Shown: one piece after another, positions 21,767 to 64,000 of the stretch
Layout: each line of letters begins with the position of its first letter
Position numbering within the stretch: the stretch's first letter is position 1
Position numbers and translations under genes: made by a program
Notes under the pieces: generated by a model
Told to the model about the DNA's origin: nothing
Seen by the model: the letters and a program-made list of their open reading frames with translations, nothing else
The model's database searches: none
DNA from: an uncultured Chloroflexia bacterium
GTDB taxonomy: Bacteria; Chloroflexota; Dehalococcoidia; UBA2979
Reading direction: 5' to 3'
Length of the DNA stretch: 64,000 nt
Assembly (NCBI GenBank): GCA_963728205.1
Contig: CAVSIV010000001.1
Location: 1,120,001-1,184,000 of the forward strand

Positions 21767-22124
21767 GGGGACGACAGGATTCGACAGGTGCGCACGGACG
21801 CGGATTGCGGGTCGAGGTGCCATCACCCTCGTAAATCAGGTGGCAAAAAGTAACTGGCGAAACTCAACTCGCCCTCGCTGCTTAATTAAGTAGCGACGTG
21901 GCGCATGGTCTCCTCCCGACGGGCCATGTGCCGCGACGTTTAGTCGGGATGCTCGGCGCAGGTGGGCTGCAGGCCTGCGTTCGAAAAGATCACTGCCGCT
22001 GGCCACACTCGCCCTCGGTCGACGGAGGGGCTGTGGCGAGATAAACATCCGCCGGCTACACCCGTAGTAGATTCGCGACGCACGTACGCTGGACGGGGAG
22101 TTCGATTCTCCCCCGTCTCCACCA
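21767..22124 (+). ncRNA. ssrA: tmRNA; tag (A)GETQLALAA at 21856-21885
   Basis: 5' GGGGACGACAGGATTCGAC; 3' T-arm GTTCGATTC and ...TCTCCACCA; tag ORF ending LAA-TAA; adjacent to smpB. Confidence 0.95.
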
Positions 22125-23589
22125 ACTCCAAACCCGACATAATCTGCCGGGTCTCTTGCGCTGTGAGGAGCACTGCCCTGGAGTGCTCCGTCCGCCGGAC
22201 GGCATGATCGAGCAGGCTGCGGAAGCCAGCCGTCGGCGTGATCGCACCGATCCGCTGCGACTCGATATCCACGTAGACGCGTTCGACGAGCGGATTGAGC
22301 AGGATCCGCTGCTCATCGCATGTTGCTCGCTCCCAGAGTGCCGGCATGTCCCCGAAGATCTCGGCGGCCTCCTCGTACGAGAGTCCGCTCAGCATCGTGG
22401 CGTTTCGCAGCTGCTGATCGAGCATCTTGCGAAGCCCCAGATACTCCCCTTCGCTGAATCCTCCGTCCGCGTACGCCCGGGCCAGCCGGCGTCGCCGCTC
22501 GTTCAGCTCGCCGATGTCTGGACCCTCGTACTCACGCGATGCGAGGTCGGCCATGCGCTCCCGCCAGTCCGGCTCGAACTCAATCGACCGCCAGATCTCG
22601 GCGATCTGCCAGTCGAGCCGCTCGGCCGACAGGCTCCGTCCGTTCGTCTGGCAGTGCACGCCGTGGCGCTCCCGGTAGAACGGATTCCCCAGCCCGTTTC
22701 GTTCCGAGTGCACCTTGCTTCCGCAGCGTCCGCAGTAGAGCCGGCCCTGGAGCAGTCCATGGCGCCCGGACGTCGAGCGGCGTGAGCGCGCTGGGCCGCG
22801 GCGCGCCTGAACCTCCTGGTACAGGCTCTCCGTGATCAGCGGCTCATGTAGGCCGCGGATCTCCTCCCCGCGATAGCGCACCAAGCCCACGTAGAACCGG
22901 TTGTTGAGCATGTCCTTCACCGCGAACGGTGTGAAGAGCGGGTTCTTCCCGCGCGGCCGGTACCCCTCCAGGTTGAGCCAGCGCGAGATCTCGCCGTGTG
23001 AGGCGCCCGTGGTCCGGCGCTCGAAGGCGATGCGCACTGCCCTGCGCTCGTCGGGATCGGGCACGGGCACCGCGCCGGCGCTGGCAGTTACGTAGCCGAA
23101 TGGGACCGGTCCGATGGGCAGGCCCTTTTCCGCGCGTTCGCGCTGTCCCTTGCTGACGTGCACGGCGAGTTGGTCGGAGAAGAACTCGGACACGCCGCCG
23201 ATCATCGTGAGCATGAGCTTGCCGGCGGGCGTCGTGAAGTCGATGTTCTCGGTGACGCTTGCAAAGCCGACCGTCGCCTCGCCGAGCCGTTGCAGCGCCT
23301 GCCGCTGAACGCCGACGTTTCGCGCCCAGCGATCGATGGTGTGGACGATGACCACGTCGAACGCGCCGCGTGACGCGTCCTCGAGGAGCGCGACGAGCTG
23401 CGGTCGCCGCTCGATCTTCTCGGTATGCGCGCTCACACCCTCGTCGGCATAGACGTGCACGAGGTCGAAACCCTGGCGCTCGCAGTACCGGGCAATCTCG
23501 CGCCGCTGCGCCGCGAGCGAGTGCCCTTCGGTCTGTTCCTCCGTCGAGACGCGCACATAGCCAGCCGCGCGCTGCTGCCGCTTATTCAT
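21940..23589 (-). CDS. Large serine recombinase (ssrA-specific integrase, DsiB-like); C-terminus encoded antisense to tmRNA
   Basis: YVRVSTEEQ catalytic Ser, RPQL, DRWAR, PFGY recombinase domain, CGRCG Zn ribbon; ...LVETGENRTPRP is antisense tmRNA 3' end. Confidence 0.92.
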   Translation of the reverse strand: MNKRQQRAAGYVRVSTEEQTEGHSLAAQRREIARYCERQGFDLVHVYADEGVSAHTEKIERRPQLVALLEDASRGAFDVVIVHTIDRWARNVGVQRQALQRLGEATVGFASVTENIDFTTPAGKLMLTMIGGVSEFFSDQLAVHVSKGQRERAEKGLPIGPVPFGYVTASAGAVPVPDPDERRAVRIAFERRTTGASHGEISRWLNLEGYRPRGKNPLFTPFAVKDMLNNRFYVGLVRYRGEEIRGLHEPLITESLYQEVQARRGPARSRRSTSGRHGLLQGRLYCGRCGSKVHSERNGLGNPFYRERHGVHCQTNGRSLSAERLDWQIAEIWRSIEFEPDWRERMADLASREYEGPDIGELNERRRRLARAYADGGFSEGEYLGLRKMLDQQLRNATMLSGLSYEEAAEIFGDMPALWERATCDEQRILLNPLVERVYVDIESQRIGAITPTAGFRSLLDHAVRRTEHSRAVLLTAQETRQIMSGLELVETGENRTPRPAYVRRESTTGVAGGCLSRHSPSVDRGRVWPAAVIFSNAGLQPTCAEHPD

Positions 23590-23790
23590 CCCCACTCCCC
23601 TGCCCGCGCGCCTGCCGTTCGCGTTCCCAGATCGCGCGCGCCACCCGAGCATATTCCCGGCAAAGATACTCGAGGGCGGGCGGCAGCTCCGCCGTCCGCC
23701 CGGCCCGGCGCCGGCCTCGCCCCGTCGCGCGAGGCCGTGACCCCGCCCGAGGCGACTCATTATGTCGCGTAGCCCGGTCCACGCCCAGCC

Positions 23791-23991
23791 CTACCCGGCC
23801 GCCCTGTCGTCAGGGATGCCTGCGGCGCGGAGCCGTTCTTCGAGCGCCGCGCGCGGTACTCGGATAAGCCGGCCAAGCCGAACCGAGGGAATCTCACCTC
23901 GGGCCACGAGCTCGTAGGCGAGGTTGCGCCCGATGCGGAGCAGCTTCGCCGCCTCGGGCACCGTCAGCAACGTTCCAGCGTCGTCCATCAT
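23791..23991 (-). CDS. Excisionase-like HTH_17 protein
   Basis: LLTVPEAAKLLRIGRNLAYELVARGEIPSVRLGRLIRVP. Confidence 0.88.
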   Translation of the reverse strand: MMDDAGTLLTVPEAAKLLRIGRNLAYELVARGEIPSVRLGRLIRVPRAALEERLRAAGIPDDRAAG

Positions 23992-24022
23992 GCTTCCTCG
24001 CTTCGTCGTGCGCGCGCGTGCG

Positions 24023-62307: not shown

Positions 62308-62419
62308 GCGCAGACCTGTCCTCTTCGGGGCCGCCTTCGGGCGGCCCCGACATCGTCGCGCCCGAAATCGGGGGTGACGCGCGCCCGCATCCGGGCGCGC
62401 CGAGGCAAGCAGGTTGCGC
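62308..62419 (+). ncRNA. Candidate four-way-junction structured RNA or ssDNA element
   Basis: Closing stem plus three hairpins, one with an 11-bp stem and C(UUCG)G loop. Confidence 0.5.
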
Positions 62420-62436
62420 AGTGAACGGAGAAAGAC

Positions 62437-62754
62437 ATGTTCGACGAGAAGAGTCGCTTCGGAGCGGCGGCGGTGGGCGTGTGGGAGCGCTCGCACCGCG
62501 AGTACGCGGGCTGGCCGCCCGCCGAACAGGCGGTCGCACGGGCCGCCATTGAGTCGCTGTCCGCGCAGCTGGCGGAGTGCGCCGATGAGCACGGGCTGCA
62601 CGAGCAGTACTGGGCCTTCGGGGATCCGCTGGGACAGGTGCTGCAGGCGCAGCTCCCGCCGGGGTTCGACCCCGAGCGGCTGCTCACGCTCGAGGAGGCG
62701 TGCCTCTGGCTGCGCCTGCTCGAGCTGCGGGGGACGCCGCCCTGTTCGACGTAG
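62437..62754 (+). CDS. Hypothetical protein
   Basis: GGAGA RBS; protein-like ORF overlapping primase start. Confidence 0.6.
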   Translation: MFDEKSRFGAAAVGVWERSHREYAGWPPAEQAVARAAIESLSAQLAECADEHGLHEQYWAFGDPLGQVLQAQLPPGFDPERLLTLEEACLWLRLLELRGTPPCST

Positions 62755-63801
62755 CCGCAATCCGCGCCCAGCACCCGATCGCCGAGACGGTGCGCGGCGC
62801 CGGCATCGAGCTCACGCGGAGCGGGCGGCGCCTGCTGGGGCGCTGCCCGTTCCACGCCGACCGCGATCCGAGCTTCGTCGTCTACGCGGACACGAGCAGC
62901 TGGTTCTGCTTCGGCTGCAACGCCGGCGGCGACGTCATCGACTTCGTCGGCCGGCTGCGGGGCACGCCGTTTCGGGAGACGGCGGAGCGGCTCGCGACGA
63001 GCGCGCCCGCGCCGCCCGCGAACGTTGCGCCCCTCCGTCCGCGCCGAGCGCCGCCGGCGCTCGACGCGTGCGCGCTCGCGGTCGTCGAAGCCGCGACGGC
63101 GTACTACGAGCTGGCGCCGGCCGACCGTGCCGCGTGGTCGTACCTCCGCGCTCGCGGAATCGACGTGGCGACCGCGCGCCGGCACCGGCTCGGCTACGCA
63201 CGGGGCGGGCTCGCACGCCATCTCCACGACCGCGGCCTGAGCCAGGACGTGGCGCGGCAGCTCGGGCTGCTCTCCCGCGACCGCGACGCCCTGGCCGGAC
63301 GGCTCGTGGTGCCGAACCTCGACCGCCGCGGACGGGCGCGCTGGCTGACCGCTCGCGCGCTCGGCGCGGGCGAGCCGCGCTACCTCAACCTGCGCGCGCC
63401 GGTGCCGCTGCTCGGCCTGGCGCGCACGCGCGGCGTGGCGCCGCGCGGTCGTCGTCACCGAGGGACCGTTCGACTGGCTCACGGCCAGCGGCTGGGGCCT
63501 CCACAGCCTGGCGCTCCTCGGGACGCACGTCTCGCTCGACGCGCTCGCGGCGCTCCGCTCCTTCCGGCGCGTCTACGTCGCGCTCGACGCCGACGAGGCC
63601 GGCCGCCAGGCGGCCGCGCGCATCGCGGGCGAGCTGGGCGAGCGGGCGGTGGTCGTGACGCTCCCACCCGGGGCGCACGACCTGAGCGAGCTCGGAACGC
63701 GGCGCGATGGCCGCGCGGCGTTTCTCCGCTCGCTCTACCGCGCACGCGCACGGAGGCAGGGATCGTGGTCGAGATCCGCGGGCAGCGCCCGCGCCGCCTG
63801 A
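62742..63801 (+). CDS. DNA primase (CHC2 + TOPRIM), copy 2, frameshift near 63435; start reads CTG
   Basis: Manual translation: GRCPFHADRDPSF...[36 protein letters not shown]. Confidence 0.82.
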
Positions 63802-64000
63802 GCCGCGCCGCCCTCGAGGCGCTGCGGCAGCCGCTCGCGCCGGAGCTCGTCTCCGAGCGCACCACCGACGACGGCGAGGTCCTCCGCTACCTGGAGGGCT
63901 GGCGCGTCATCGAGCAGGCCAACGCGATCTTCGGCCACGACCGCTGGGGCGTGGAGCTCGTGGGCGAGGTCGCCTACCGCGCCGTCCCCGCGGCCGGCCG
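63765..64000 (+). CDS. Rad52/Rad22-family single-strand annealing protein (truncated by window end)
   Basis: GGAGG RBS, GTG; manual translation LRQPLAPELVSER...YLEGWRVIEQANAIFGHDRWG. Confidence 0.8.
   Translation, partial: MVEIRGQRPRRLSRAALEALRQPLAPELVSERTTDDGEVLRYLEGWRVIEQANAIFGHDRWGVELVGEVAYRAVPAAG

Follow-up and report, generated by a model that had tools for sequence, protein, structure and literature searches.

An ssrA-located integrative element, most likely of a Dehalococcoidia host, that carries a monoderm-type secretion system and a Tad pilus locus

Do the genes of a conjugation apparatus and those of a pilus that lie downstream of one transfer-messenger RNA (tmRNA) gene belong to a single mobile element, and could that element still move between cells? 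This question is raised by a 64,000-nt stretch of DNA (positions 1-64,000, here called the window) on contig C1 (CAVSIV010000001.1) of an uncultured bacterium that is most likely a member of the class Dehalococcoidia and whose genome (G000) has a G+C content of 72%. An initial annotation had placed an ICE (integrative and conjugative element) at 22100..64000, inserted at the tmRNA gene ssrA, and had described it as self-transmissible and as a combination of a monoderm type IV secretion system (T4SS) with a full Tad/Flp pilus. The explanation that we favor, with a probability of roughly 0.7, is a 54.1-kb element at ssrA with a DsiB-type integrase and a backbone of monoderm T4SS plus Tad genes, present here as a decaying copy. 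Relatives were sought in a sample of 401 genomes of the class, with a threshold of E ≤1e-20 for the VirB4 search. An actinobacterial host, to which a G+C content of 72% could point, was rejected because 58 related loci belong almost entirely to metagenome-assembled genomes of Dehalococcoidia/Chloroflexota.

Bounds and integrase of the element

ARAGORN made a single tmRNA call (21767..22124, plus strand; tag peptide GETQLALAA), which is the ssrA gene used as the integration target. The gene smpB, with homologues in 25 of the 31 genomes searched, lies just upstream (21235-21714). The 3' end of the tmRNA gene (22108..22124, plus strand) forms the core of the left attachment (att) site, attL, as one copy of a 17-nt direct repeat. 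A search for a second ssrA 3' fragment, proposed in the initial annotation, returned an exact partner (17 of 17 nt, same strand) at window-equivalent positions 76235-76251, corresponding to C1:1196235-1196251 and to 12235-12251 of the DNA right of the window (L001). No further copy of the core was present in the window or in L001, including the interval 22125-76234, at up to 3 mismatches. Directly after this attR stands a terminator-like hairpin, similar to those found 3' of real tmRNA genes in G003 and G014, and the genes farther to the right are ordinary chromosomal ones.

As the repeat recurs 54 kb away without an internal copy, the element is therefore 54.1 kb long, measured from repeat to repeat, and contains the tad operon; attR lies to the right of that operon and not to its left, where it would have counted against the proposed combination. 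The right end of the extent first assigned falls short, as the element runs 12.2 kb beyond position 64000 and the window holds only its left 42 kb (22125-64000). The same 17-mer was present in 234 of the 401 sampled genomes (a tally that includes G258). Same-strand arrays of it occur in some small genomes, with 7 copies within 116 kb in G073, and G410 and G412 hold 3 to 4 same-strand ssrA repeats each.

A large serine recombinase of the DsiB type (CcrB family) is encoded at 21940..23652 on the minus strand, with an uncertain start between 23595 and 23757. It matched Pfam Resolvase (8.9e-35) and Recombinase (4.5e-14) and the NCBIfam CcrB model (8.2e-42). Its reading frame crosses the att core and stops only 185 nt into ssrA, antisense to that gene, which gives an open reading frame (ORF) of 606 amino acids (aa) in the integrated state versus 585 aa when read over the circular junction. 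In G073, G292, and G304, homologues with 35 to 36% identity (E values of 1e-78 to 1e-86) are located precisely at ssrA repeats, and a homologue with 66% identity adjoins smpB in G005. The latter match (locus L005) holds three TGA codons. In G016 and G005, integrase and T4SS genes come after smpB in the same arrangement as in the window, and ARAGORN called no tmRNA between smpB and the DsiB-like integrase at either locus (L003 and L005, respectively).

Next to the integrase, on the same strand, lies a small gene for a helix-turn-helix (HTH) protein of the Excise family (23791..23988; TIGR01764, 2.7e-14), a possible recombination directionality factor or relaxosome accessory. Relatives carry this gene beside the relaxase gene at 60 to 78% identity, in the company of tyrosine or of serine integrases. 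Because it stays by the relaxase whichever type of integrase neighbors it, the protein may act in the relaxosome rather than in excision. Overall, the exact repeat, the serine recombinase, and the transfer genes described below support the assignment as an ssrA-located integrative element of the ICE type.

Secretion and pilus modules and their linkage in relatives

Codon-usage and GC3 (third-codon-position G+C) gene callers were unreliable within the island, and homology was therefore used for gene calls. The Pfam scan covered 198 ORFs of at least 90 aa overlapping positions 21900-64000, and 84 chosen ORFs were compared with NCBIfam. All T4SS-module genes lie on the minus strand. A putative relaxase gene (24023..25821) is spread over three frames. 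Its open C-terminal piece (24023-24796) matched Replic_Relax (3.7e-13; 50.4 bits against a cut-off of 25.3). The putative relaxases of relatives join a MarR-like N terminus to Replic_Relax and are 598 and 716 aa long where translated, and the corresponding ORFs of four relatives align in frames -2, -3, and -1 of this copy. The gene for a VirD4-type coupling protein (T4CP; 25812..28540) has an open ATPase part (25812-27308) with matches to TraG-D_C (23.9 bits; cut-off, 22) and TrwB_AAD_bind, while its N-terminal ~300 codons lie in two other frames in comparisons with G295, G150a, G115, and G410. Two intact genes follow. One encodes a DnaG-like primase with zinc ribbon and Toprim domains (28278..29333; Toprim_2, 5.6e-12; TIGR01391, 2.3e-25), which aligned with G410 as one high-scoring segment pair (HSP) of 582 aa, and the other a VirB4-like ATPase of the CD1110 type (29333..31138). 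VirB4 matched NF045971 at 1.6e-96 and 324.3 bits, 0.7 below the cut-off of 325, aligned with G410 over 639 aa in a single frame, and shares 67 to 80% identity with relatives.

Farther along are orfX (31134..31892), a module ORF of unassigned family with 49 to 64% identity in relatives and no Pfam match at E ≤0.01; a PrgI-family, VirB3-like gene (31801..32202; PF12666, 27.5 bits against a cut-off of 27); and a gene for a VirB2/pilin-like, two-helix membrane protein of 76 aa (32199..32429), whose NF045849 match (35.2 bits, 7.2e-9) is under the cut-off of 40 and whose identity to relatives is 67 to 71%. Next in the module come a VirB1-like SLT lytic transglycosylase (32442..33557; SLT, 8.2e-7), kept in relatives as is PrgI, and a TrbL/VirB6-like channel protein (33643..34744; TrbL_4, 2.8e-11) with 70 to 75% identity to relatives. 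The trbL gene changes frame at ~34384, where residues 44-172 and 173-419 of the G410 protein align in different frames that abut at 34385/34383. The PrgI, TrbL_4, and SLT matches are above their Pfam cut-offs. None of the 198 + 83 ORFs scanned matched the Secretin, VirB9, or VirB10 families at E ≤1e-3, in agreement with the initial annotation, and its integrase, excisionase, relaxase-class, VirD4, VirB4, PrgI, and VirB2-, VirB1-, and VirB6-like genes were all recovered in place. A CD1110-type VirB4, PrgI, a VirB6-like protein, and a cell wall hydrolase, without a VirB9 or VirB10 match, characterize a monoderm T4SS of the MPF-FA/FATA type. With a recombinase flanked by att repeats, VirB4, and the ATPase part of the T4CP (its gene being split over three frames), the locus has the makeup of an ICE-type element with a candidate relaxase.

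The Tad operon, likewise on the minus strand, holds, from left to right, the prepilin peptidase TadV (44021..44494; Peptidase_A24, 6.3e-17), a SARP/BTAD-type regulator (44487..45515; BTAD, 5.7e-15, plus Trans_reg_C; 36 to 49% identity in relatives), a LysM peptidoglycan-binding protein (46440..48023; LysM, 2.1e-14; 37 to 49%), and a PKD-like secreted protein (48046..48777), which shares 46 to 52% identity with five relatives and whose PKD_4 match (1.9e-5) is below the cut-off. Three pseudopilin genes (49535..50829), one TadG-like (49535-49921) and two of the TadE type (49970-50482 and 50455-50829), matched PF13400 and PF07811 and are 50 to 58% identical to those of relatives. The Flp prepilin (50810..50992) has an ERG/AEMVEYAIV motif and 60 to 66% identity in four of five relatives. 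TadC (51019..51969; T2SSF, 1.8e-12) contains a stretch of ~52 codons that is out of frame relative to G410 (frames -3, -1, and -3), and one of these changes was also seen against G150a. TadB (51954..52664; T2SSF, 1.1e-11) is intact and aligned with G410 as one HSP.

The TadA/CpaF-type ATPase gene (52952..54254) has one extra base near 53534. Its halves lie in two frames and each matched TIGR03819 ("TadA family conjugal transfer-associated ATPase") best, with 139 and 141 bits; the cut-off of 373 bits is reached neither by them nor by the intact G410 orthologue (281 bits). HSPs with G017, G242, G150, G115, and G410 all abut at 53535/53533, a site outside any homopolymer. At the tadZ/cpaE position (54284..55391), only a remnant with four frame changes is left, without a family match in this copy. 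Intact TadZ orthologues of 407 to 439 aa carry SGKGAPGxTT and match TIGR03815 and MinD/ParA, and that of G410 aligns with the remnant in five pieces in alternating frames. CpaB/RcpC, with a SAF domain, is encoded at 55199..56083 (RcpC, 2.5e-12; SAF; TIGR03177), and a second BTAD-domain regulator (56709..57422, plus strand; BTAD, 4.2e-11) is divergent from the operon. One locus thus holds the complete Tad/Flp component set (TadA, TadB, TadC, TadV, TadZ, Flp, pseudopilins, and CpaB). Of the full pilus first described, the gene content was confirmed, with cpaB, tadA, tadB, tadC, flp, the three pseudopilins, and the prepilin peptidase all in place on the minus strand, but not its intactness: tadA and tadC are broken, and cpaE, although correctly positioned, is recognizable only through its intact orthologues.

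VirB4 homologues were found in 68 of the 401 genomes, and 15 genomes besides G000 hold copies at 54 to 80% identity. The C-terminal half of TadA found 13 places at 72 to 81% identity, three at 59 to 62%, and all others at 54% or less. For nine of the 13 close TadA matches, a VirB4 gene (67 to 76% identity) shares the contig and the strand; eight of these pairs are 14 to 38 kb apart and the ninth 76 kb. Three are on other contigs than VirB4 in fragmented assemblies, and the last (G007) is in a single-contig genome in which neither VirB4 nor TrbL was found. When island ORFs were compared by tblastn with five 80-kb regions (G017, G295, G242, G150, and G115), VirB4, orfX, TrbL, and 10 Tad-module genes (BTAD, LysM, PKD, two pseudopilins, TadC, TadB, TadA, the ORF at the TadZ position, and CpaB) were matched in all five, at 36 to 79% identity and in conserved order. 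Flp and T4CP were matched in four of the five each, the excise-type gene in three, and TadV in G017a only. The T4SS and Tad modules are just 2.4 kb apart in G295, at the junction that holds an insert here. The integrases differ among the five regions, with a tyrosine integrase in three (one of them beside a tRNA-Glu gene) and a serine integrase in G295.

An intact ssrA-integrated relative was found in G410 (L054). It has an integrase (53% identity), relaxase, T4CP, primase, VirB4 (74%), and TrbL, followed by TadV through CpaB, all single-frame, in the order of the window and on the strand opposite to ssrA. In G016, the T4SS module starts straight after smpB and continues to the contig end. Identities of the T4SS and Tad modules rank in parallel, with G410 and G017 above G295 and the latter above G242, G150, and G115. 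Since the Tad genes are colinear with the T4SS in six other elements whose integrases differ, and TadA lies near VirB4 in the wider sample, Tad is, as judged from gene order, a backbone module of this element family and not chance cargo. The combination of T4SS and Tad noticed in the window therefore holds as a conserved feature of its relatives.

Three copies of the element occur in each of G017 and G150. A 3.67-Mb Dehalococcoidia chromosome (OZ253555.1) has six separate TrbL/VirB4 loci of this family (L036-L039, L049, and L055), an unusually high ICE load. The Tad genes of G007 (G007:C1:1750818-1760679; L094 and L095) encode CpaB, TadZ, TadA, TadE, and TadG at 44 to 76% identity and form a partial Tad module, in which a 5-kb stretch between TadA and TadE has no match to anything in the island. 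On a plasmid of "Candidatus Chlorohelix allophototropha" (NZ_CP128402.1, ~140.9-148.8 kb), genes for TadA (46%), a PKD-like protein (27%), and LysM (44%) are clustered and may be another member of this Tad-module family.

Decay, insert, and right part of the element

Compared with the ORFs of relatives, this copy shows ~14 frame changes in eight backbone genes: two each in the relaxase, T4CP, and tadC genes; four in tadZ; and one each in trbL, tadA, the second primase gene, and ardC. Uninterrupted genes include those for VirB4, the first primase, TadB, CpaB, and the integrase. As a control, the chromosomal flank on the same contig was aligned over 17.7 kb (13 to 14 ORFs from each of three relatives) and gave no frame signals, while the same scan found signals at seven places in 19.9 kb of aligned island; it gave none in 15.1 kb of the G410 element. 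A run of at least four identical bases is close by at only two of 10 break sites, against a background of 18%. These comparisons suggest that the frame changes probably represent genuine decay. Because of the ~14 changes in eight backbone genes and a 9-kb insert, the copy in the window appears to be a decaying relic that is probably not self-transmissible; the self-transmissibility first proposed was not borne out for this copy, as both transfer and Tad genes are broken.

The insert is a variable stretch of ~9 kb (34750..43990) of lower G+C content (0.61 to 0.68) between the T4SS and Tad modules. Besides a LuxR gene (35125-36651), a DUF433 gene, and a gene for a methyltransferase (43324-43821), it contains a fragment of IstB (38143-38703), the helper of IS21, and a VirB4 fragment whose ~95 codons are split between two frames (~41823-42120). 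The IstB and VirB4 fragments are remains left by an earlier element or by rearrangement.

To the right of the Tad operon, on the plus strand, a conserved ORF of unassigned family (61302..62288; 38 to 58% identity in four of five relatives; no Pfam match) lies upstream of a second DnaG-like primase gene. The latter starts at 62700 and changes frame at ~63446-63457, reading in frame 2 and then in frame 3 against all five relatives. A gene for a Rad52-like annealing protein (63675-64424, plus strand) runs past the window end. A primase-Rad52 fusion, suggested by one long open frame, was rejected, as the two are separate genes in all five relatives and the primase shifts frame at ~63450. In the stretch of L001 that precedes attR lie ArdC, whose gene is split, RadC, a Phd/PIN pair, LuxR genes, MauE/DoxX, and DUF6788.

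A tblastn search of the source genome with island proteins covered contigs C3 and C5 and part of C2. On C5 (18,255 bp), a second, related T4SS module occupies ~2200-12400, with relaxase, T4CP, primase, VirB4, and TrbL genes at 52 to 77% identity to those of the island (best segment of each). Almost every one of these genes is in two to four frames, which indicates a heavily decayed copy or a low-coverage contig. On C2 (668132-668547), two T2SSE fragments adjoin each other in different frames; the second is 60% identical to the island TadA, and together they probably mark another leftover of a Tad locus. A strong T2SSE gene stands apart from them at C1:778036-778872.

Related systems, rival explanations, and the ssrA islands

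The two modules have counterparts in another phylum. Linear plasmids of Cutibacterium acnes (pIMPLE-HL096PA1, p15.1.R1, and others) carry a tad locus (Kasimatis 2013, PMC3666418; Davidsson 2017, PMC5696575) that, compared by description only (Kasimatis Table 2), resembles the one studied here in content and order, with RcpC/SAF, TadZ, TadA, two TadB/C genes, a small ORF, three TadE genes, and LysM/BTAD. In the descriptions given there, it adjoins a VirB4-family ATPase gene and conjugation-like genes in a monoderm host and has no secretin. Unlike the present element, these are linear, nonintegrated plasmids, and the C. acnes plasmid pTZC1 has a T4SS but no tad locus. The annotated record of a linear plasmid of Embleya sp. 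NBC_00896 (NZ_CP108778.1, 274-300 kb) shows the same two modules at 27 to 41% identity: PrgI, VirB4, T4CP, a replication-relaxation protein, and NlpC/P60, and next to them a SAF protein, a hypothetical protein, TadA, TadB, TadC, three TadE/G proteins, and BTAD(LysM), the LysM homologue being fused to BTAD. Identities were 39% for VirB4, 41% for TadA, 34% for TadB, and 39 to 45% for the LysM region. This actinomycete plasmid differs from the element in that it has no integrase module and an NlpC/P60 hydrolase in place of SLT. No published study of it was found.

Type IV pili encoded on conjugative elements have been reported to augment mating (IncI plasmid R64, in liquid) or to be required for it (PAPI-1) (PMC12857230). 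These systems likewise encode a type IV filament machine beside the T4SS; however, they have type IVb pili and secretins in diderm Proteobacteria, in contrast to the presumably monoderm host and the Tad/Flp pilus of the present element. The word "Tad" is absent from the available text of that 2025 T4SS review. The T4SS-type ICEs of Actinobacteria (Ghinet 2011, PMC3218068) and the MPF-FA/FATA classes (Guglielmini 2012, 2014) share monoderm VirB4/VirD4 modules and poorly known relaxases with the present element. They differ in that no pilus module is reported in the accessible parts of these sources, and the surveys required MOBF relaxases, whereas the candidate here is of the Replic_Relax type.

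In intact members of the family, the serine recombinase would excise a circle, perhaps with the HTH protein, which the Replic_Relax protein would nick. The VirD4-type protein would then pass the strand to a channel made of VirB4, VirB6, VirB3, and VirB1, with help from the transglycosylase. Contact with recipients may come from a retractile Tad pilus, held in place via the LysM and PKD proteins, that finds and holds them as the IncI thin pilus does, a putative mating role to which the synteny points. The closest precedents are the IncI thin pilus and PAPI-1, and the closest published observation is the tad locus next to VirB4-like genes on the C. acnes plasmids.

Several observations weigh against this account. 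Genes right of attR had no counterpart downstream of ssrA in the relatives compared, and an empty site was therefore not recovered. The relaxase call depends on one Pfam domain, Replic_Relax, which is outside the classical MOB families and unvalidated, making the gene a candidate. Excision and transfer are what we infer; no excised form, oriT, or transfer was observed. Among the 15 other genomes that have a close VirB4, five (G345, G173, G090, G321, and G199) showed no close TadA, and in G007 the ICE-type Tad genes occur in the absence of VirB4 and TrbL. With a TrbL alignment as the query, 58 loci were found, almost all in metagenome-assembled genomes (MAGs) of Dehalococcoidia/Chloroflexota, with VirB4 within 10 kb on either side at 44 and any Tad-module gene at only 12. 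This low count is partly an effect of the distance chosen, because several of the other loci carry Tad 20 to 35 kb away (~30 kb in G150 and G115), and part of it may be real absence. As for the copy itself, two public sequencing runs share only 0.04 of sampled words and neither holds the locus, the genome is MAG-like (89% completeness, 5.6% contamination), and the frame breaks on C5 could mean an error-prone, low-depth consensus.

These points feed into four other explanations. Tad could be adaptive cargo for surface adhesion or biofilm formation that rides with the ICE family without a direct part in DNA transfer, a possibility that we consider unlikely, though far from negligible. Tad loci are often horizontally transferred and often plasmid-borne (Denise 2019), the authors who described the C. 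acnes plasmids call the link between Flp pili and conjugation unclear (Davidsson 2017, PMC5696575), and both G007 and the close VirB4 loci without a close TadA fit this idea. However, the linkage survives the exchange of integrases and cargo, Tad abuts the T4SS in G295, the module identities rank in parallel, and the Embleya plasmid shows the pairing again in another phylum; moreover, adhesion that boosts mating success is a mating function anyway. Doubtful, too, is an intact and self-transmissible element whose frame changes stem from errors in the consensus of a long-read metagenome assembly, in a region of lower or mixed coverage. The MAG-like genome, the pattern on C5, which is typical of poor consensus, and the single-frame state of VirB4, the first primase, TadB, CpaB, and the integrase would agree with it, but the signal-free flank, the lack of homopolymer enrichment among the breaks, and the IstB and VirB4 fragments, which are rearrangement scars and not indel errors, argue for decay.

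That the machinery has a function other than conjugation of the element, for example in DNA uptake, protein delivery, or contact between cells, is improbable. Transformation of Micrococcus luteus requires Tad genes (cited in Davidsson 2017, PMC5696575), the relaxase family is unvalidated, and MOB-suite types the Embleya plasmid as nonmobilizable. On the other hand, the integrase with its att sites, Replic_Relax, the coupling protein, primases, ArdC, RadC, and a toxin-antitoxin pair are the usual conjugative outfit, and several copies per genome (three in G017 and G150, six TrbL loci on one chromosome) imply self-propagation. The successive insertion of two unrelated islands, an ICE and a Tad island, at ssrA would be in keeping with the tandem accretion that is common at this site in the class (G073, G410, and G412) and with the lower-G+C insert between the modules. 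It is nevertheless very improbable: no att core lies between the repeats, and the modules are adjacent in all five regions and in G410, with other integrases and at other sites. A single ssrA element with a T4SS-Tad backbone, decaying in this copy, accounts best for the data jointly.

The element also bears on the ssrA islands of Dehalococcoides that carry reductive dehalogenase genes, which are described as mobilizable by an unknown route of cell-to-cell transfer (McMurdie 2011, PMC3146451). As in those islands, insertion is at the ssrA 3' end with a direct repeat, and a published repeat primer, when reverse-complemented, ends in the 17-mer found here. A CcrB-family integrase lies by attL on the opposite strand with no stop before ssrA, just as the dsiB open frame crosses attL into ssrA in Dehalococcoides (McMurdie 2011, PMC3146451), and tandem arrays occur at the site. 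The kinship suggested by the initial annotation is supported by this DsiB-type frame and by the homologues on ssrA repeats, although the integrase is only 35 to 36% identical to those array-associated proteins. In contrast to the Dehalococcoides islands, described without conjugation genes, the element encodes a T4SS, a coupling protein, a candidate relaxase, and a Tad pilus and lacks reductive dehalogenase cargo. A dsiA-like second resolvase, ParB, and mom with an embedded tRNA-like gene were not found in the island, which has one Resolvase ORF only and no tRNA call. Conjugation genes are not mentioned in the available text of a 2026 Dehalogenimonas study (PMC13390414), and no description of a conjugative element in Dehalococcoidia, or of a DsiB element with transfer genes, was found in the open-access literature as far as its accessible text goes.

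In G410, a 12-kb island (G410:C1:170490-182736; L090) lies between two ssrA-core repeats, in tandem with the T4SS-Tad element. It encodes a DsiB-like integrase, a ResIII helicase, an N6/N4 DNA methylase, and an SNF2 helicase, resembles a defense system, and has no transfer genes. This single arrangement of an ICE beside an integrase-and-cargo island speaks for the idea that such ICEs act as helpers, and because the att core and integrase family are shared and the two are in tandem, small islands could be coexcised or mobilized in trans. Against it, among the matches listed, none of the 12 sampled genomes of the array-bearing family had a VirB4 homologue at the threshold used. We can only tentatively propose, as a rather unlikely case, that DsiB/T4SS/Tad elements may be the missing vehicles or helpers of Dehalococcoidia ssrA islands, together with a Tad mating organelle spread across Chloroflexota and Actinomycetota. 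If this were true, the islands concerned would include the published vinyl chloride and dichloropropane dehalogenase islands.

Overall, the element combines known kinds: the ICE, the ssrA island, and pilus-assisted conjugation. As T4SS and Tad are linked in at least seven elements with swapped integrases and on an actinomycete plasmid, the data suggest that a Tad pilus serves mating-pair formation in some monoderm conjugation systems, a role that was raised and left open for the C. acnes plasmids (Davidsson 2017, PMC5696575). The copy in the window is itself probably dead, and its value is that it points to the family. Other members of the class have elements that use this att site and integrase type and carry a complete conjugation module, and the question of how ssrA islands are transferred is now testable.

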